In this document: piece by piece, positions 4,563 through 11,705 of the stretch
Layout: the number at the start of each line of letters is the position of its first letter
Numbering within the stretch: the first letter of the stretch is position 1
From: Eggerthellaceae bacterium
Lineage (GTDB): Bacteria; Actinomycetota; Coriobacteriia; Coriobacteriales; Eggerthellaceae
Length of the DNA: 32,000 nt
Reading direction: 5' to 3'
Assembly: GCA_050951005.1 (NCBI GenBank)
Contig: JBMNIP010000001.1
Span: 96,102-128,101, forward strand
Program-made: the position numbers and the translations under genes
The notes under the pieces: generated by a model
Databases searched by the model: none
What the model saw: only the letters and a program-made list of their open reading frames with translations
Told to the model about the DNA's origin: nothing

Positions 4563-5027
4563 ATGAGCGAAGAAACCCCCTTGGTCGGAATCATCATGGG
4601 TTCGAAAAGCGATCTTCCCACCATGGAGCCCTGCATGAAGCAGCTCGAAGAATTCGGCATTCCCTACGAGGTGAAAGTGGCTTCGGCCCATCGGAAGCCG
4701 CTCGAGGTGCACGAATGGGCGTCCAGTGCCGTCGATCGTGGATTGCGCGTCATCATTGCCGCGGCAGGCAAGGCGGCGCACCTTGGCGGTGTCGTGGCGG
4801 CGTACACTCCCAACCCGGTGATCTGCGTTCCCATGAAGACCAGCGACCTGGGCGGTCTCGACTCGTTGCTCTCCATGGTGCAGATGCCCTCCGGGGTTCC
4901 GGTGGCGACGGTGGCCATCAACGGCGCGAAGAATGCGGCAATCCTGGCAGTGCAGATGCTTGGGACCGGCGACGACGCCATGCGTCAGAAGATAGTAAAG
5001 ATGAAAGAGGATATGGCCAACGCGTAA
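4563..5027 (+). CDS. purE: 5-(carboxyamino)imidazole ribonucleotide mutase (PurE)
   Basis: Motifs: VGIIMGSKSDLPTM, ASAHRKP, IIAAAGKAAHLGGVVAAYTPNPVICVP, VQMPSGVPVATVAINGAKNAA. AAGGAG RBS lies 6 nt upstream of the ATG. Confidence 0.93.
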   Translation: MSEETPLVGIIMGSKSDLPTMEPCMKQLEEFGIPYEVKVASAHRKPLEVHEWASSAVDRGLRVIIAAAGKAAHLGGVVAAYTPNPVICVPMKTSDLGGLDSLLSMVQMPSGVPVATVAINGAKNAAILAVQMLGTGDDAMRQKIVKMKEDMANA

Positions 5028-5081: not shown

Positions 5082-5696
5082 ATGGGAACACCGGCATATC
5101 GGACCGGACGTGGCTTGACGTTCTCGCAGGAGAGTGCATCGATGGCGCTGCTCGTTATCGACATGCTCGGCAACCCGTATGCTTCCCCTGTCTCCGAATT
5201 GGCGGTTCCCGCCACGGAGAACGGGGCGCGTATCTGTACCGCGGCCCGCGAGAACGGTGTGCCGGTAATCTTCTGCGACGATGCGCATATCTCCGGACTC
5301 GACCGCGAATTGGAACTGTGGGGCGATCATGCCCTCATCGGCACCCCCGAAGCCCAGCCCAGTCCGCAGCTGGGTCTTTGCGATGACGATTTCATTATCG
5401 AGAAACGCCGATACAGCGCCTTCTTCCAAACGGGACTGCGGCTGCTGCTTCACGAGCTTGGCGTGGATACCGTCATTGCGATAGGCGCCGACACGAACAT
5501 CTGCGTGCGCCATACCGTGGCCGATGCCTTCTTCAACAATCTGAATTCGATTATCGTCACAGATGCTACGTGGACGTATCTGGTGGGGAATCAGGAAGAC
5601 GGCCTGGCGTACTGCCAGACATGCTACGGGTCGAAGCTGGTAGACACCGATGCCGCCGTATCGATGCTGAACGGGCTTTGCCGTCAGCGGGATTAA
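5082..5696 (+). CDS. Isochorismatase-family cysteine hydrolase (nicotinamidase-like)
   Basis: Motifs ALLVIDM, KRRYSAFFQTGLRLLLHELGVDTVIAIGADTNICVRHTVADA give the Asp/Lys/Cys triad context. GGGGAGG RBS lies 6 nt before ATG 5082. An alternative start is at 5142. Confidence 0.85.
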   Translation: MGTPAYRTGRGLTFSQESASMALLVIDMLGNPYASPVSELAVPATENGARICTAARENGVPVIFCDDAHISGLDRELELWGDHALIGTPEAQPSPQLGLCDDDFIIEKRRYSAFFQTGLRLLLHELGVDTVIAIGADTNICVRHTVADAFFNNLNSIIVTDATWTYLVGNQEDGLAYCQTCYGSKLVDTDAAVSMLNGLCRQRD

Positions 5697-6442
5697 GCGG
5701 AAACAATCCGAGGCAGGGGCTTGTCGAAATCCTCGCAGGGGACGGCGTCCACACGCTGCTCGGCATAGGCGATGCCCACGATAAAGGCATCCTGGCGGGT
5801 TTCGGCGAACAGCCGATCGTAATTCCCCCCGCCGTATCCGAGGCGATTGCCCTGCTCGTCGAATGCGACCAGGGGCGTTACGATGATATCAAGGTCAGCC
5901 GGTGCGATACGCGGGTAGTCGGCAAGCACCGGATCGTCGGCATCGAGGCCCTTAAGCGGATTCACGACGAATGGGCAGGTGGCGCGCTGGTCGAAGGAAA
6001 CCTTGCGGAACGTCATACGGAGCTTGCGCGTACCGTCCTGCTCGGCAGCGGGAATCCGCTCCATGCAGGGATAGCAGACATGTGCATGATGCATGTAGGC
6101 CATGGCGACGAAGCCGGTGATATCCGGTTCGCTTCCCATGGAGGCATACACCGCGACATTCAGCGCCGGTCCCCGGTCTTCTTCCAACAGGTTCTCAAGC
6201 AGGGAGAAATCGGCAGCCAGCGGGTTGCCGGATTGGGCTGGGGGCTGCTGCTCCGTCTGGACGGGTGCGCCTTCCGCCCATTGGCGCATCTCCTTCTTCT
6301 CCGCCAGCTCATCCCAATCCACCTCGCGCGCAAGCTGGGCGCAGATAAGCACGTTCTTGCCCTCGCGCTGGTCAGACGCAATTGCATCGCGCCGTGCCAG
6401 CACCTGCTGGCGCAGGGCTTTCTTCTCATCCGTTATCGCCAT
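5693..6442 (-). CDS. 5-formyltetrahydrofolate cyclo-ligase (MTHFS) family protein
   Basis: Starts MAITDEKKALRQQVLARRDAI and ends ...IIVTPLVAFDEQGNRLGYGGGNYDRLF, which is the conserved GxGxGYYD-type C-terminal motif. I chose ATG 6442 (GAAAGGAA upstream); the ORF-track start 6538 is unlikely. It carries a Gln/Pro-rich insertion compared with typical ~190-aa family members. Confidence 0.85.
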   Translation of the reverse strand: MAITDEKKALRQQVLARRDAIASDQREGKNVLICAQLAREVDWDELAEKKEMRQWAEGAPVQTEQQPPAQSGNPLAADFSLLENLLEEDRGPALNVAVYASMGSEPDITGFVAMAYMHHAHVCYPCMERIPAAEQDGTRKLRMTFRKVSFDQRATCPFVVNPLKGLDADDPVLADYPRIAPADLDIIVTPLVAFDEQGNRLGYGGGNYDRLFAETRQDAFIVGIAYAEQRVDAVPCEDFDKPLPRIVSA

Positions 6443-6468
6443 GCCGGTTCCTTTCTGTGGTCTGGTTG

Positions 6469-7863
6469 CTATAGCCCCATGACCTGCATTACCAACAGGA
6501 TACAGGTGAGCAATCCCACGATGCCGACCGTCGCCCACAGGGCTGCGGTGCCGAATTTCGATTGCACGTATTGTCCCATGATGCGCTTATCGGCGGAGAT
6601 GATGGCCATAAACGCCAACAAAATAGGCAGGATGACGCCGTTGACGAACTGCGCGGTCAGCATGATTCCCATCAGGTTGGCCCCGGGGATCATGTCGATG
6701 ATAGCGGAGAGCACGATGATGAAGGTGATAATGCCCTTGAACGTCGGCGCTTCCTTCCAGGAGAAGTCGACGCCTGCTTCCCAGCCGAAGGCCTCGCAGA
6801 TAACGAATGCAGTGGTAACCGGCAGGACGCAGGCAGCCAGGAAGCTCGCAGCGATAAGCCCGATGGCGAAGAGCATCTTCGCGTATTCCCCGGCGAAGGG
6901 CTCCAGCGCCGCCGCAGCAGCTTCGGCGCTGTCCACGGTAATGCCTTGCGGGAAGAGGGTCGCGCCGGTAGTGACGATGATGAACCACGCTACCAGGCAG
7001 GCGGCTACGGTGCCGGAGATCGAGTCGACTTTCTGGCCGGTGAAGTCCCCGACCCCGACGCCCTTTTCAACGACATTGCTCTGCTCGTAGAACATCATCC
7101 AAGGCGCGATGGTGGTGCCGATCATGGCGATAACCAACGAGATGAACCCGGTCCCGCCTGCAACGCTCGGTGTGACCGTGCTGGTGATGGCGGCGTTCCA
7201 GTCGGGCTGTGCCATGAAGGCGGCCACCACATAGGTGACGAACACGAACGAAAGCGCCATCAGCACGCCCTGCACCCGTTTGTAATTGCCGCCGACCAAC
7301 AGGAACCATACGGCTGCTGCGGCGACGGGGATGGAGATCCAGCGCGAGACCCCGAACATCTCCATGCCCGAAGCGATGCCGGCGAACTCGGAGAATGTCG
7401 TGGCGACATTGCCGATGAGCAAGGCCAACATGGCAAGCGTCGTCAGTCGGATGCCGAAGCGCTCGCGGATCAGAGCGGAAAAGCCCTTGCCAGTGACCGC
7501 GCCCATACGCGAGGCGGTGATTTGCACAATGGCCAGCAGGATGCACATGATGGGAATGACCCACAGCGTGCCGAAACCGTAACTTGCACCGGCAGTGGAG
7601 TACGTGGAAATGCCGCCGGCGTCATTTCCCGCCATGGCGGTGACGATGCCGGGACCCATGGCTGCCAGGATCAACAGCGCTTTCGGTTTCTTTTTCTCGG
7701 GAGTCTTTGCTGCGGCGGTGTCTTCGCCTTCGGCAACGTTGGTGTCTTGCAGCACACGGTCGTCGTCTGAGGCGGCCAGCGTGGACGGCTCCCCTCCGTT
7801 TTCAGGGCCTACATCCATTGCGGCGCCGGCGATGTCCCGCTTCGTGCGGTCGATAACCATCAT
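6469..7863 (-). CDS. NRAMP/SLC11-family transporter of the NRMT (NRAMP-related Mg2+ transporter) type
   Basis: This is an 11-12 TM protein. The TM1 region reads GPGIVTAMAGNDAGGISTY, so DAGG replaces the canonical DPGN. The TM6 region reads IGTTIAPWMMFYEQS, so the canonical MPH is absent. The start is ambiguous: ATG 7863 or 7860 lie just after the upstream stop, and GTG 7875 would overlap it by 7 nt. Confidence 0.9.
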   Translation of the reverse strand: MMVIDRTKRDIAGAAMDVGPENGGEPSTLAASDDDRVLQDTNVAEGEDTAAAKTPEKKKPKALLILAAMGPGIVTAMAGNDAGGISTYSTAGASYGFGTLWVIPIMCILLAIVQITASRMGAVTGKGFSALIRERFGIRLTTLAMLALLIGNVATTFSEFAGIASGMEMFGVSRWISIPVAAAAVWFLLVGGNYKRVQGVLMALSFVFVTYVVAAFMAQPDWNAAITSTVTPSVAGGTGFISLVIAMIGTTIAPWMMFYEQSNVVEKGVGVGDFTGQKVDSISGTVAACLVAWFIIVTTGATLFPQGITVDSAEAAAAALEPFAGEYAKMLFAIGLIAASFLAACVLPVTTAFVICEAFGWEAGVDFSWKEAPTFKGIITFIIVLSAIIDMIPGANLMGIMLTAQFVNGVILPILLAFMAIISADKRIMGQYVQSKFGTAALWATVGIVGLLTCILLVMQVMGL

Positions 7864-7868
7864 GGGTA

Positions 7869-9227
7869 TCACCACTGGTAGCCGATAACGCTCAGCAAGA
7901 TGGCGGTATAGGCAATCAGGAACAGGATGCCGAGTGCGGTGCCGCCGACAATCCAGGTCCAGCGGTGCCGCGTCTTGTCATCATCGGCTGCATCCTCCAT
8001 GACCTCGAAGGCGTCGTCGAACGTCACGATACCCAGCAGATGCTCGCGTTCGTCGACCACCGGCATGGCGGGGAGATCGTATTTGGAGATTTCCGCGGCC
8101 ACTTCCTCTTCGTCCATCTCGGGCGGACAGGTGATGACGTCGGTGAACATCAGGTCGCGCAGCAGCACTTCCGTGCTCCGGGCCAGTACCAACGTGCGCA
8201 GCGACAGTACGCCGATCAGCTTCTCGTCCTCATCGTCCAGCACATACAGGCAATGGACGCTGGGATGGTCTTCGTCCAGGTGGCGGAGCGCGTTGATAGT
8301 GTCTCCGACCGTCTCGCTTTCGTGCATGGCAACGTACTGCGTGGTCATGCGCGCGCCCGCCGTGCCGTTCTTGTAGCCCAGCAGCTCGCGGATGTCCTCG
8401 GCGTCCTCGACTCCCATCAGCTGCAGCAGGGTCTGTGCCTTTTCGTAGGGCAGCTCGTTGATGATGTCGGCGGCAACGTCGGGGTCCATGTCGGACAGGA
8501 GGCGGGAGGCGCGGTGCTCTTCCAGGTCATCGATTGCATCGGCTTGGAATTCGTCTTCCATTTCCTGGATGGCATCGCCGGCCCGCTCGTCGTCCAGATG
8601 CTGGAACACCGCGGCACGTTGTTGCGGGTCGAGCTGTTCCAGGATGTCGGCGACGTCGGCGGGATGGAGTTCGTCCAAGCGGGTATGCGATACGGATAGC
8701 TGCACCTTGGACAGGTCTCGGTCCAGCAGGTCCATATAGTTCCAGGCAATGATGTGCTCGTCGATGGGGCGTTTGACTGCTTCCGCCACCGAACAGACGG
8801 CTTTCTCCAGCCAGGGCGAAAGCCCACGCAAAATGCCGCGTAGGCCCACTTCGGCGCCAATCAGGCGCAATTGGCTGCCGGCATCCGAAAGCTTCAGGTC
8901 GTTCACGCGCACGAGCTTCTTGCCCTGCGTATCGACGATCTGGCGATCCATCAAGTCGCGCGCCAACAGCACCTCGGCCGGCTGCAGGTAGCTGAAACGG
9001 ATATCGGTAGCGTCCACCTTCAGCTGGATGCCCTCTTCTTCATCGAAATCGCCGACGTACTTTCGCCACGAAATCATGAAGGGCACCTTGCCGGGTCCTT
9101 TGAACGCCAAGCTGGTAACCCGCGGGAATACCTCGCCGGTCTGGATTGCAAGATCGGAGATCTTGCCCAATTCCTCGCCGTTGGTATCCATGACGGGAAG
9201 CCCGAGCATTTGAGATAGATAGAGCAT
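7869..9227 (-). CDS. PRC-barrel + MgtE N-terminal domain + CBS-pair protein with a single C-terminal TM helix (MgtE cytoplasmic module without the MgtE pore)
   Basis: The N-terminus has two PRC-barrel-like segments (LSQMLGLPVMDTNGEELGKISDLAI and ARDLMDRQIVDTQGKKLVRVNDLKL). An MgtE_N region follows (LHPADVADILEQLDPQQRAAVFQHL...DPDVAADIINELPYEKAQTLLQLM...LLGYKNGTAGARMTT), then a CBS pair. The protein ends with one hydrophobic helix, WTWIVGGTALGILFLIAYTAILLSVIGYQW. RBS GGGGGAAG precedes ATG 9227. Confidence 0.9.
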   Translation of the reverse strand: MLYLSQMLGLPVMDTNGEELGKISDLAIQTGEVFPRVTSLAFKGPGKVPFMISWRKYVGDFDEEEGIQLKVDATDIRFSYLQPAEVLLARDLMDRQIVDTQGKKLVRVNDLKLSDAGSQLRLIGAEVGLRGILRGLSPWLEKAVCSVAEAVKRPIDEHIIAWNYMDLLDRDLSKVQLSVSHTRLDELHPADVADILEQLDPQQRAAVFQHLDDERAGDAIQEMEDEFQADAIDDLEEHRASRLLSDMDPDVAADIINELPYEKAQTLLQLMGVEDAEDIRELLGYKNGTAGARMTTQYVAMHESETVGDTINALRHLDEDHPSVHCLYVLDDEDEKLIGVLSLRTLVLARSTEVLLRDLMFTDVITCPPEMDEEEVAAEISKYDLPAMPVVDEREHLLGIVTFDDAFEVMEDAADDDKTRHRWTWIVGGTALGILFLIAYTAILLSVIGYQW

Positions 9228-9508
9228 GCTTCCCCCTATTTTTCCGACGCCGACTTCTCATGCCATGCGAATTCGCATGTGCGAGATAAGTGCAAGCGTC
9301 GTTTTCACGGGTAGCCGATAAGACCTCGGCCACCTGCAAGAGGGAATGGCCGGGGGATCAGCTACTGTGAGGTTTCGATCTTCGAACCTTCACCGTGTTC
9401 CTTCCCTGAGACCTATAAAACCGCAGCACCTGATGAGTGCTGTGCTTGCGGGCTCGTTGCCTTTGGGACCGTAGCGAAAAGGCAACCAACCCGCAATTCC
9501 GTATTGTA
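9228..9508 (-). promoter_or_regulatory. Candidate promoter (-10 TACAAT, 9503..9508) plus a ~270-nt highly structured 5' leader of the MgtE_N/CBS-NRMT operon; RNA class unassigned
   Basis: The minus-strand RNA contains a 17-bp helix (9448..9494), a hairpin followed by UUUUAU (9415..9442), a bulged hairpin (9367..9394), crossing complementarities in 9311..9407, and a 16-bp perfect palindrome (9264..9279). Details are in the findings. Confidence 0.4.
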
Positions 9509-9533
9509 ATGGGGCGGGCCTCCTGCTGTGACG

Positions 9534-9586
9534 AAAAAGGCATCAGCGGTCGAGACGACTCCGATACCGAGCAATAAGCACATGCC
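9534..9586 (-). terminator. Possible terminator of the tRNA-Arg transcript (imperfect hairpin + T5)
   Basis: On the minus strand, GGCAU...AUGCC closes an imperfect ~48-nt hairpin and is followed by UUUUU (plus-strand A5 at 9534..9538). The stem is poorly paired internally, so the call is weak. Confidence 0.3.
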
Positions 9587-9610
9587 GCCATATACAAAAA
9601 GAGCTGCAAG

Positions 9611-9687
9611 TGGTGCGCCCTGTAGGATTCGAACCTACGACGTACTGATTCGTAGTCAGTCCCTCTATCCAGCTGAGGTAAGGGCGC
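9611..9687 (-). tRNA. tRNA-Arg (anticodon ACG), CCA encoded
   Basis: The reverse complement folds as acceptor GCGCCCT/AGGGCGC, D-arm CCTC-AGCTGGATA-GAGG, anticodon arm ACTGA-CTACGAA-TCAGT (ACG), variable ACGTC, T-arm GTAGG-TTCGAAT-CCTAC, discriminator A, then CCA. Length is 77 nt. Confidence 0.95.
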
Positions 9688-9707
9688 ACATAAATGCAGC
9701 ACTCGTT

Positions 9708-9736
9708 ATTATGCGCAGGGGGTTGGCAAGTGTCAA
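9708..9736 (-). promoter_or_regulatory. Near-consensus sigma70-type promoter for tRNA-Arg (TTGACA - 17 nt - CATAAT)
   Basis: On the minus strand, TTGACA is at 9731..9736 and CATAAT at 9708..9713, with a 17-nt spacer. It lies about 20 nt upstream of the tRNA 5' end. Confidence 0.6.
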
Positions 9737-9857
9737 GCGGAATCCCGAATTCAACTAATTTGCATAGTTTTCACCTGCAGCGACGGTCTGATTCCATCGG
9801 TCGTGGTTTCCCCGCGCAGGAACAGGCATTTTTTGGGAAAGCGGCTATCATAACCCC

Positions 9858-11705
9858 ATGAGTTTCCTCGACCGCACATCCAATAACCCTTCCGTTGGGA
9901 CGGCTTTCCAACAAGGGCAGCCATTGATCCTGAATCGCTACCGTCCCCTCGGCGTGGCCGGTACGGGCGGCTATGGCACGGTCCAGGTTGCCTGGGACAC
10001 GCGCATGCAGCGCCGGGTTGCAGTGAAGTGCATGGACATGCCCCAGGAATGGCGCGGCGGATTCCCGGATAGCGACGTGTTCAACGAGCTTTCTCCCTCT
10101 CAGATTCCCGGATTGGAAGAGGCGCGCACTGCGGCGATGCTGACGCATCCGAATATCGTGAGCGTCTACGATTTCGAGGTATCCCAAGGGGTTGCCTACC
10201 TGATCATGGAGTGGGTCGACGGAATGACGCTTGCCGACCTGTTGCGCGCCGTGGGCGATAACATCACGCTCGATATGGTGACGGCGGTCTATGCCGGTGT
10301 TGCCCGTGCTTTGGAATACGCACACGAGAACCAGGTGCTGCATCTGGACATCAAGCCGGCCAATATACTGATCAACCATGCGGGGCAGGTGCTGGTGACC
10401 GACTTCGGCCTGGCTCGTCTGTCCGACACCTGGGGCTATTCGGCGGCACGGGGCGGCACTATCGGCTACATGCCCCCCGAGCAGATGCGCCAAGAGCCCC
10501 TGGACGACCGCTGCGACGAATGGGCGCTGGCCAGCGTGCTCTACGAGATGATCTCGGGCAATAATCCATTTCTCGCGCGCGATATCCCTTCGGCTATCCA
10601 GGCTATCGAGGGCGCAGAGATCGTTCTGCCTTCGCTGTGCATGGAGGGTTTGCCGGGAGAAGCCGACGACATCATCTTCTATGCACTCGACCCCGACCGC
10701 AACGAGCGCTATGCTACCGTCCGCGATTTCGATGAGGAGATATCTCCCTGCCTGGGCGACGAGCAGCAAGGGCGCCAGCAGCTTCAGCAAGCCGTTTCCT
10801 CGTACCTTGCGGATGACGATTCGGCTGAAGATGCGTCGCCGGCAGAAGTGAGCACCGGGTTCTCCTTTTTGAAGCCGCAGTTCAGAGAGAAGATGAGCGG
10901 AAAGGTTTCAACGGTGTCGTTGCGCATCTGGGCCCTGTTGACCAGCATGGCTGCCGCATTGGCGGAGCTGCCGAGCTTCGATATGCTGGGCGGGTGGACC
11001 TCGCCGCTTTGCGCGCTGGCGTTTGCCGGCATGCTGGTACTGGCATTCGCCGTGCCGCGGGCGGGGGCGCTTGCCTCCCTTGCCGTATTGGTTGCCGCCC
11101 TTATCGTCCACGAGCTCTATATTCCGGCGGTGCTTATCGGTGCACTCGGATTGGCATGGTTCCTTCTGGTTGGCAACGACGGCGATGCGCAGGCCAATGC
11201 CGGCACACTGCCTTTCGTCGCGGGCGCTATCGGCTTAAACCAGATAATCCCGATGCTTTCGGGCTTCTTCTTGCCCATTGGCGATGCCCTGAAGAGCGTG
11301 GTATTCGCCTGGGTGCTCGCCGTGTTCTTGGCCTGCTTTGGGAGCGGGAGCCTGCTGGGATGGAACGTGAACCTGGGCACGCTTGATGCCGATGCCCTGC
11401 AGAAGAGCTTCGTCGCATTGGCCGGCGATCCCGGAACGTATATCGTGCTGGCATCCTGGCTCGCCTCTGCTGCGGTGGTGAGCGCTTTCGTGAGGCGGGG
11501 GAGCCGTGCTTCGGCTCTGGTCGGCGTACTGCTCGGCGGGGCGGTCCTTATTGTCGGTGCCATGCTGATGACGGCGGTGGGTTCCTCGTTCGCGAACTGG
11601 GTTCCCAACGTGAACTATCTGGTTCCCGCTATCATCTCGATGCTGCTGGTGGGATTGCTGGGTTGGGTGTACGCGCCCGAGCGCCCCGACATCTCCGGGG
11701 AATAG
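9858..11705 (+). CDS. Hanks-type Ser/Thr protein kinase with a polytopic membrane C-terminal domain
   Basis: Kinase motifs: GTGGYGTVQVAW (P-loop), VAVK, HPNIVSVYDF, LHLDIKPANILI, VTDFGLARL, GTIGYMPPEQ. The C-terminal ~270 aa contains about 8 hydrophobic helices and no PASTA or other domain I recognise. Confidence 0.9.
   Translation: MSFLDRTSNNPSVGTAFQQGQPLILNRYRPLGVAGTGGYGTVQVAWDTRMQRRVAVKCMDMPQEWRGGFPDSDVFNELSPSQIPGLEEARTAAMLTHPNIVSVYDFEVSQGVAYLIMEWVDGMTLADLLRAVGDNITLDMVTAVYAGVARALEYAHENQVLHLDIKPANILINHAGQVLVTDFGLARLSDTWGYSAARGGTIGYMPPEQMRQEPLDDRCDEWALASVLYEMISGNNPFLARDIPSAIQAIEGAEIVLPSLCMEGLPGEADDIIFYALDPDRNERYATVRDFDEEISPCLGDEQQGRQQLQQAVSSYLADDDSAEDASPAEVSTGFSFLKPQFREKMSGKVSTVSLRIWALLTSMAAALAELPSFDMLGGWTSPLCALAFAGMLVLAFAVPRAGALASLAVLVAALIVHELYIPAVLIGALGLAWFLLVGNDGDAQANAGTLPFVAGAIGLNQIIPMLSGFFLPIGDALKSVVFAWVLAVFLACFGSGSLLGWNVNLGTLDADALQKSFVALAGDPGTYIVLASWLASAAVVSAFVRRGSRASALVGVLLGGAVLIVGAMLMTAVGSSFANWVPNVNYLVPAIISMLLVGLLGWVYAPERPDISGE

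Follow-up and report, generated by a model that had tools for sequence, protein, structure and literature searches.

A Mg2+ uptake operon of two genes from a gut bacterium of the Eggerthellaceae: an NRMT-type transporter, a pore-less MgtE-like partner and a candidate leader RNA

The role of the MgtE-like protein encoded beside genes of NRAMP-related Mg2+ transporters (NRMTs) has been a standing question since 2014. NRMTs are uncoupled Mg2+ carriers without a gate of their own, and this raises the question of how cells that use them escape Mg2+ overload. Both questions are posed by a locus of a gut Eggerthellaceae bacterium (contig JBMNIP010000001.1), analysed here within a stretch of 32,000 nucleotides that is termed the window. 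A minus-strand gene pair in the window is a two-gene Mg2+ uptake operon, in which the gene of the MgtE-like protein, termed the partner, precedes the gene of an NRMT-type transporter. The two genes and their junction are as follows.

7869..9227, minus strand: partner gene, 452 amino acids, with the order PRC-PRC-MgtE_N-CBS-CBS and one transmembrane (TM) helix (Pfam and TIGRFAM profiles, hydropathy, AlphaFold2 (AF2) model)
6469..7863, minus strand: gene of the NRMT-type SLC11 Mg2+ transporter, 464 amino acids from the ATG, ortholog of EleNRMT (Pfam, HMMER alignment to structures)
7863..7875, minus strand: gene junction, with the TGA stop at 7871-7869, the ATG at 7863 and an alternative GTG at 7875 (sequence)

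The transporter belongs to the Pfam Nramp family (PF01566, 272 bits, profile positions 1-356 of 357) and scores far under the cutoff of the NCBIfam MntH model (125.6 against 430). It matches EleNRMT of Eggerthella lenta (PDB 7QIA/7QIC/7QJI/7QJJ; Ramanadane et al., 2022) with an E value of 4e-197 and 72.4% identity over 427 residues (7QIA). The sequence contains AMAGNDAGGIS in TM1 and GTTIAPWMMFYEQS in TM6. In HMMER alignments to solved structures, DAGG stands against the DPGN and TIAPW against the VVMPH of canonical NRAMPs; the segment GNDAGGIS is identical in EleNRMT, and GTTIAPW of TM6 aligns against canonical GAVVMPH. The changes in TM6 are Ala to Thr (T250), the metal-binding soft-metal Met to Ala (A253) and the first helix-6b His to Trp (W255). 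In helix 10, Q405 corresponds to EleNRMT Q379. The two sites are located at:

7612..7623, minus strand: TM1 site D81-A-G-G84, equivalent to EleNRMT D55..G58; DPGN in canonical NRAMPs
7099..7119, minus strand: TM6 site G-T250-T-I-A253-P-W255, with T250 equivalent to EleNRMT T224; A..MPH in canonical NRAMPs

Because the site residues in TM1, in TM6 and at Q405 match those of EleNRMT, the protein is by its sequence a member of the NRMT clade, and that it is an NRMT with Mg2+ transport function is nearly certain from the same comparison. The roles of the binding-site residues were taken from the EleNRMT paper, in which Mg2+ transport was measured and is uncoupled from H+ (PMC8806188). Given the close orthology and the identical site residues, the window transporter should likewise be an H+-uncoupled uptake carrier of Mg2+ and Mn2+. 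It differs from EleNRMT in a longer N-terminus (464 versus 438 amino acids) and in the residue that stands for the canonical second helix-6b His, which is Glu here and Asn in EleNRMT (E260 in the 464-residue numbering, about 7084-7086, minus strand; APWMMFYEQS versus APWMMFFNQS). E260 thus places a protonatable residue at that position.

At the junction, which reads ...TAC CAG TGG TGA TAC CC ATG ATG..., a spacer of 5 nt separates the partner stop from the transporter ATG. If the alternative GTG at 7875 were used (open reading frame 6469..7875), the start would overlap the stop as GTGA; the start in public gene calls on identical contigs is the ATG at 7863. A preliminary description of this DNA, made from the letters alone, had read the transporter as an NRMT with DAGG in place of DPGN and with the soft-metal Met of TM6 lost, and had placed the partner stop 5 nt from ATG 7863 or under GTG 7875. 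All of this stands: the aligned site is not the canonical DPGN/MPH, every signature residue of the EleNRMT binding site is kept, and the junction lies where it was said to lie.

That description had also regarded the partnership as uncharacterised, whereas it had already been recognised. Shin et al. (2014, PLoS Genet, PMC4072509) reported that most genes of the NrmT group adjoin a gene with homology to MgtE's cytoplasmic N-terminal domain, named these loci 'mgtE-nramp operons', and proposed that the neighbour provides cytoplasmic feedback regulation or acts as a metal chaperone. The idea that the partner would regulate the NRMT was therefore already in print in 2014. The window pair, an MgtE-like accessory gene next to an NRMT-clade gene, has the same gene order, gene families and regulatory hypothesis as the published operons (the CA_C0685 operon of C. 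acetobutylicum and ACP_2976/2977 of Acidobacterium capsulatum). It differs in that its partner is TM-anchored, whereas the published neighbour is a small cytoplasmic protein; the PRC barrels described below are family-wide but go unmentioned in that paper; and M-box riboswitches are common there (in many members, not all), whereas the window has a different conserved leader. The window locus thus belongs to a known operon type, of which it is a lineage-specific variant: its partner is anchored by a TM helix and its leader is not an M-box. The upstream partner is not discussed in the EleNRMT paper (PMC8806188), and a literature search found no paper later than Shin et al. (2014) that addresses the partner protein.

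How general is the pairing? A pattern scan of GTDB species genomes with the profile of the partner family yielded 80 loci from Coriobacteriia, Chloroflexota, Dormibacterota, Nitrospirota, Acidobacteriota, Desulfobacterota, Firmicutes, Armatimonadota, Saccharimonadales, Methanobacteriaceae and Methanocella. The survey starts from partner genes, and two of the loci are cut by contig ends, which leaves 78 that are informative. An adjacent Nramp-family gene is present in 70 of the 78, in more than eight phyla and two archaeal lineages; the linked loci span Coriobacteriia, Chloroflexota, Nitrospirota, Acidobacteriota, Desulfobacterota, Firmicutes, Armatimonadota and methanogens. TM1 of the adjacent transporters reads D-A-[G/S/A/T]-G or a near variant in all cases (70/70); TM6 was readable in 69 of them, and 68 of these have G-T-T-x-[A/T/S]-P-[W/Y/F]; DPGN/MPH was found in none of the 70. 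Where both genes lie on one strand (61 pairs), a 4-nt overlap is seen in 17 cases and a spacing of -1 to +25 nt in 24, so that 41 fall within -4 to +25. Partner and NRMT distances are correlated (Mantel r 0.64; none of 2000 permutations as high). A pairing met again in so many phyla, at 70 of the 78 informative loci, is far beyond chance, and the tight, conserved association that the preliminary description anticipated is borne out. A functional link between partner and NRMT is very likely. The operon is also tied to Mg2+ independently, since M-box riboswitches precede the pair in several lineages: in Pelosinus (in tandem), in Desulfosporosinus, in another Firmicute and in two Coriobacteriia loci, L009 and L083 (the full set is L009, L037, L049, L053 and L083).

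The partner itself amounts to an MgtE cytoplasmic module that has a TM anchor in place of the pore. Pfam finds a PRC domain at residues 2-59 (45 bits), MgtE_N at 187-287 (101 bits) and two CBS domains (71 bits), and no match to the five-helix pore domain PF01769. The TIGR00400 mgtE model is matched only at profile positions 16-258 of 450, with a score of 188.9 against a cutoff of 232.75; because this match stops at the cytoplasmic part and stays below the cutoff, the pore is missing. Hydropathy shows one hydrophobic segment, at residues 424-452 approximately. In an AF2 model built on 40 homologs (mean confidence, pLDDT, 91.5), beta-barrels at 1-70 and 85-167 are followed by a disordered linker at 171-180, the helical MgtE_N, the CBS pair and one unbroken helix, 403-451, with the membrane segment at its end. 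For the second PRC segment the Pfam score is weak (18 bits, under the 21.2 cutoff, E value 0.003), but the model has a beta-barrel there, at a pLDDT of about 90. Along the gene the domains are:

9018..9227, minus strand: first PRC beta-barrel, residues 1-70 (Pfam PF05239, 45 bits; AF2 strands)
8727..8975, minus strand: second PRC-like beta-barrel, residues 85-167 (Pfam sub-cutoff, 18 bits; AF2 beta-barrel)
8367..8669, minus strand: helical MgtE_N domain, residues 187-287, with D218, D250 and D254 (Pfam PF03448)
7998..8351, minus strand: CBS pair, residues 293-410 approximately, with D384, D405 and E408 (Pfam PF00571)
7878..7958, minus strand: single C-terminal TM helix, residues 424-450 approximately, continuous with a plug-like helix from residue 403 (hydropathy, AF2)

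The MgtE_N and CBS part of the model superposes on solved cytosolic domains of MgtE with target-normalised TM-scores of 0.83-0.91 and root-mean-square deviations of 2.0-2.4 A; the Foldseek matches are 2OUX, 8GPV and 2YVY. Compared with MgtE of Thermus thermophilus (TtMgtE; PDB 2YVX, 2YVY, 5X9G), the fold of this part is alike (target-normalised TM-score about 0.85) and the long helix leaving the CBS pair resembles the MgtE plug helix, but the 5-TM pore is absent, two PRC barrels are added and the residues of the ATP pocket are not kept. Lacking the five-TM pore, the partner cannot itself be a channel or MgtE transporter, and the label 'magnesium transporter' or 'Mg2+ transporter MgtE' that it carries in NCBI and JGI records (P0001 and relatives) is for the same reason a misannotation. 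The preliminary description is upheld in its account of a complete MgtE cytoplasmic region (N-domain and CBS pair), of a pore replaced by one C-terminal TM helix and of two N-terminal PRC segments, the first by Pfam and the second by the AF2 model. Its membrane tethering applies to the window protein, with its one TM helix, and not to the family in general, most members of which are soluble.

Does the module retain what a Mg2+ sensor requires? Sites published for TtMgtE (PMC5882242) were mapped through a HMMER alignment onto a 40-sequence alignment of the partner family, with the following result.

Mg4: TtMgtE D91, window D250; Asp in 39/40
Mg4: TtMgtE D247, window D405; Asp in 40/40
Mg6: TtMgtE D95, window D254; Asp in 38/40
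Mg7: TtMgtE E59, window D218; Asp or Glu in 38/40
Mg5: TtMgtE D226 and D250, window D384 and E408; partly conserved
ATP pocket, ATP-stacking: TtMgtE F227, window L385; Leu in 34/40
ATP pocket: TtMgtE N203, window F361; variable
ATP pocket: TtMgtE D188 and Y170, window T345 and C326; not kept in the window protein

The acidic residues of the Mg2+ clamp are near-invariant in the partner family and the ATP pocket is not, an observation that is new here. The acidic Mg4, Mg6 and Mg7 ligands of MgtE are kept, and the proposal that the partner is a Mg2+ sensor gains support from their 95-100% conservation in the alignment.

From the conserved clamp residues, the precedent of MgtE and CorA and the uncoupled nature of EleNRMT, a model can be drawn by analogy. 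The partner would be a dimeric copy of the intracellular Mg2+ sensor of MgtE, anchored in the membrane and without the pore that it once had. At rising cytoplasmic levels, Mg2+ would bridge the conserved acidic residues between the N domain and the CBS domains (the Mg4, Mg6 and Mg7 sites), and the module so bridged would compact and then inhibit the adjacent NRMT. An uncoupled carrier has no negative-feedback gate such as CorA and MgtE possess in cis, and the partner would provide one in trans. Docking would most likely take place through the two highly conserved PRC barrels, and the poorly conserved TM helix would mainly hold the sensor at the membrane. Co-production of both proteins would be favoured by the 5-nt or overlapping junction, and operon expression appears to be governed by the conserved 5' leader, through pairing of a pyrimidine tract with the ribosome-binding site and without an M-box. 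Taken as a whole, with compaction, docking and anchoring, the model is tentative and falls slightly short of an even chance.

Several points weigh against it. Eight of the 78 partner genes have no adjacent NRMT gene and lie among unrelated housekeeping genes. Soluble members do not conserve the residues that we take to form the Mg2/Mg3 sites at the CBS-TM interface, and the ATP-binding residues of MgtE are not conserved in the family (Leu for F227 in 34/40, N203 variable). Whether the partner inhibits or activates is not readable from sequence. NRMTs work without a partner, both in complementation of B. subtilis (PMC4072509) and in proteoliposomes (PMC8806188). In the sole published test of a pair, which scored rescue and not overload, co-expression of the A. 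capsulatum genes gave no better Mg2+ rescue, and the transporter rescued Mn2+ uptake instead (PMC4072509).

The partner might instead be a positive or structural subunit, which would stabilise, assemble, target or activate the NRMT and would not serve as a Mg2+-dependent brake. Tight translational coupling and co-divergence fit any obligate complex. Among the Eggerthellaceae orthologs, moreover, conservation is highest in the PRC barrels (entropy 0.24-0.36) and lowest in the TM helix (entropy 1.3); a reading of the TM helix as a specific interaction helix is for this reason not favoured. EleNRMT reportedly required thermostabilising mutations for structural work. A structural subunit is nevertheless unlikely, as NRMTs on their own suffice for complementation of Mg2+ auxotrophy and for transport in liposomes, and a purely structural role leaves the near-invariant clamp residues unexplained.

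Alternatively, the partner might sense another signal (Mn2+, another cation, or a nucleotide through the CBS pair) or tune the selectivity of the transporter. The Mn2+ rescue by the A. capsulatum transporter, which belongs to the NRMT group and has a partner, points this way; adenosine ligands are commonly bound by CBS pairs, and the window operon lacks an M-box. The pocket that would hold the nucleotide is, however, degraded in the window protein (F227 to L, N203 to F, D188 to T and Y170 to C), M-boxes precede the pair in several lineages and EleNRMT does transport Mg2+, all of which makes this alternative quite improbable. With the ATP-pocket residues not conserved, an MgtE-like tuning of Mg2+ sensitivity by ATP is doubtful too, and ATP regulation as in TtMgtE is not favoured for a family in which the pocket is degraded.

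A third possibility, also proposed by Shin et al. as the alternative to feedback (PMC4072509), is that the partner receives Mg2+ at the NRMT exit, as a cytoplasmic acceptor, chaperone or buffer. The MgtE_N and CBS regions are indeed very acidic, with 63 Asp and Glu against 19 Lys and Arg in residues 171-420. Free Mg2+ is millimolar, at which level a chaperone is not obviously needed, and the conserved residues fall on the regulatory clamp sites of MgtE and not on a general acidic surface; we consider an acceptor or buffer improbable.

For a regulatory role of the module, the best indirect argument is the variety of contexts in which it occurs elsewhere. An exhaustive HMMER search with the partner family (11,198 hits) found that the conserved module is the whole PRC-PRC-MgtE_N-CBS unit, and that it occurs in several architectures. 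A soluble form of about 405-440 amino acids makes up the majority of the family. The form with one C-terminal TM helix comprises the window protein, P0121 and P0139, and the TM anchor is specific to the Eggerthellaceae lineage. In a complete genome, the module carries a genuine MgtE pore (P0147) and is followed by an NRMT gene, and modules with divergent multi-TM domains also precede NRMT genes. Since both pore-bearing and pore-less forms precede NRMT genes, the PRC-bearing subfamily of MgtE tracks NRMT with or without a pore. Against the Pfam MgtE cutoff of 27.6 bits, the pore domain scores 27.1 in L009 and 21.2 in the L083 protein and has no match in P0122/P0123; the pore seems to have decayed within Coriobacteriia down to the single helix of the window protein. 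Also new is the finding of the PRC-MgtE_N-CBS module in fusions with MgtE pores, with degenerating pores and with a P-type ATPase; these in-cis fusions fit a portable regulatory module. A partner that is the relic of a PRC-MgtE channel minus its pore, beside the NRMT by descent and with no current role, would agree with this graded degeneration (27.1, 21.2, no match, single helix) and with the full PRC-MgtE channels that also adjoin NRMT genes, but it is very improbable for a pore-less form that is intact and strongly constrained across many phyla and Archaea (12 invariant columns at about 35% identity), with low entropy among orthologs, maintained 4-nt overlaps and a confident AF2 model.

The P-type ATPase fusion, P0126 (1314 amino acids; L083 1940-5884, L084 462-4406), carries the module at the N-terminus of a complete cation ATPase. 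Its cluster has the same order in two samples: the fusion gene, a gene for a 621-amino-acid protein of the module plus five TM helices, and an NRMT gene. Three further proteins of 750-770 amino acids (P0133 at L209 2782-5031, P0140 and P0161) consist of the module, an unassigned 5-6-TM domain and an acidic Trp/Asp-rich tail. In L209 the P0133 gene occupies the syntenic slot of the window pair, followed by 5-formyltetrahydrofolate (5-FTHF) cyclo-ligase and AIRC genes, without an NRMT gene. A reading of the P0133-type proteins (749 amino acids) as natural partner-NRMT fusions was rejected, as a hidden Markov model of the TM domain matches only P0161, P0140 and the class-3 protein P0135, and the domain has no Pfam match; it is related only to the divergent class-3 TM domains (P0135, E value 1e-9).

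What governs expression of the window operon? The region upstream of the partner gene contains the following feature.

9228..9408, minus strand: conserved structured 5' leader of the operon, with the hairpin motif at 9391-9367, an anti-Shine-Dalgarno (anti-SD) tract CCCUC at about 9344-9340 and the Shine-Dalgarno (SD) sequence AGGGGG at about 9240-9235

An alignment of the sequences upstream of the partner in nine Eggerthellaceae loci displays an invariant 25-nt hairpin motif, GAAGGTTCGAAnAnnnAAnnnnCnC, at 9391-9367. When metagenomes were scanned for this motif, 120 stretches were returned. In all the loci examined, 78 occurrences (60 unique leaders) precede a same-strand partner ATG by 85-342 nt and four further copies of the extended motif are at contig ends; the other 51 motif matches lack the extended motif and are chance matches. 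The leader is present in the window, in L003-L008, L081 and L086 and in about 67 metagenome loci. The motif was rejected as a regulon element, as every copy of the extended motif is upstream of a partner gene or at a contig end. Two loci have two copies each of leader and partner on opposite strands, L101 (motif at 4629, plus, and 2232, minus) and L148 (2029, plus, and 10611, minus), and the operon appears to be duplicated in some Eggerthellaceae contigs.

The window leader folds with a z-score of -3.8 relative to shuffled sequences. RNAalifold on a plain MAFFT alignment of short leaders yielded a weak consensus (-3.9 kcal/mol), and the leader was tested instead by per-sequence folding, spliced alignments and a comparison of cognate with non-cognate duplexes. 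In independent minimum-free-energy folds, the SD core is paired with a pyrimidine tract 42-60 nt after the start of the motif in 52 of 60 leaders, regardless of the length of the intervening insertion (0-250 nt). Cognate anti-SD/SD duplexes are stabler than non-cognate ones (-16.9 versus -13.3 kcal/mol), with none of 20,000 permutations reaching the cognate mean, and compensatory changes of this helix reach into its flanks. In a 23-sequence alignment, the nested 5' domain and hairpin are 90.8% paired, compared with 28-44% in slid controls; compensatory changes occur in four of seven hairpin pairs, and the inner stems are invariant and so uninformative. The leader appears, from its sequence and predicted folds, to sequester the Shine-Dalgarno site and to resemble an M-box expression platform.

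The M-box (ykoK) riboswitch, RF00380, governs the orthologous operon in Firmicutes and in the Coriobacteriia loci L009 and L083, whereas the window leader has no match to its aptamer and has its own invariant 25-nt hairpin motif. No M-box was found in the window at the Rfam gathering threshold, nor in 9150-9720 at E values up to 10, and the window leader matches no Rfam family. A covariance model of the leader recognises only partner-upstream sites in Eggerthellaceae, two of them in loci outside its training set, and matches the window at 9272-9408 with 63 bits (E value 1e-16). A further, weak match of 14.8 bits lies between a genuine M-box aptamer, about 120 nt away on its 5' side, and the L083 cluster that directly follows it. 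The Coriobacteriia M-box lies at L083 1423-1666, and leader-like regions at L083 1789-1917 and L084 311-439. The L083 region and the window leader have ordered blocks in common, UGAAG, CUCACAGU, CCUUCGG and the GUCGAAGGAAC hairpin; the invariant 25-nt motif is not in the L083 region. Because these blocks are common to the leader and to the region 3' of the L083 aptamer, comparison suggests an origin of the leader as an M-box expression platform whose aptamer was lost or replaced. The leader is a candidate for a new, previously undescribed cis-regulatory RNA specific to the Eggerthellaceae partner-NRMT operon.

A joint reading of module and leader goes further and, in its entirety, is possible rather than probable. 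The PRC-MgtE_N-CBS unit would be a portable, Mg2+-sensing gate that bacteria and archaea use on three unrelated classes of transporter, working in cis where it is fused to MgtE pores or to a P-type ATPase, working in trans on SLC11 carriers, and docking through its PRC barrels. In the Eggerthellaceae leader, a small invariant hairpin would have replaced the ancestral M-box aptamer on the retained SD-sequestering platform, and the RNA so formed might be a minimal Mg2+ sensor or a protein-binding element.

The genes that flank the operon on the same strand are as follows.

5693..6442, minus strand: 5-FTHF cyclo-ligase gene, beginning 26 nt 3' of the NRMT stop
9611..9687, minus strand: tRNA-Arg(ACG), directly upstream of the leader

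The cyclo-ligase gene may be co-transcribed with the pair, and its synteny is kept in L086 and L209. The order tRNA, leader, partner recurs in several Eggerthellaceae loci. The tRNA is separated from the leader motif by a hairpin that resembles a terminator and has a T-run (9424-9442, minus strand); it may simply end the tRNA transcript. A scan of 5500-9750 for promoters and terminators gave hit counts not above those of shuffled sequence. Just upstream of the tRNA, a divergent gene (9858-11705, plus strand) encodes a 615-amino-acid Ser/Thr protein kinase with a long, hydrophobic, multi-spanning C-terminal half; this neighbour is also present on identical public contigs.

A practical consequence of these findings is that the partner is misannotated as a 'magnesium transporter' in public records. 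Structures, nanobodies and liposome assays are already at hand for EleNRMT, and since the locus belongs to the bacterial family of that protein, the accessory-protein question is directly testable. If the module works in trans, the cytoplasmic sensor of MgtE would be a transferable regulatory device and not a part of one channel family; if the portable-gate proposal is true, this would be the first case of a secondary carrier with a detachable Mg2+ gate. If the leader is what it appears to be, it would represent a new class of cis-regulatory RNA and add a second control element of Mg2+ transporters besides the M-box and the mgtA leader. The main value of the locus lies in these two matters together, a decade-old question on an accessory protein and a candidate cis-regulatory RNA.

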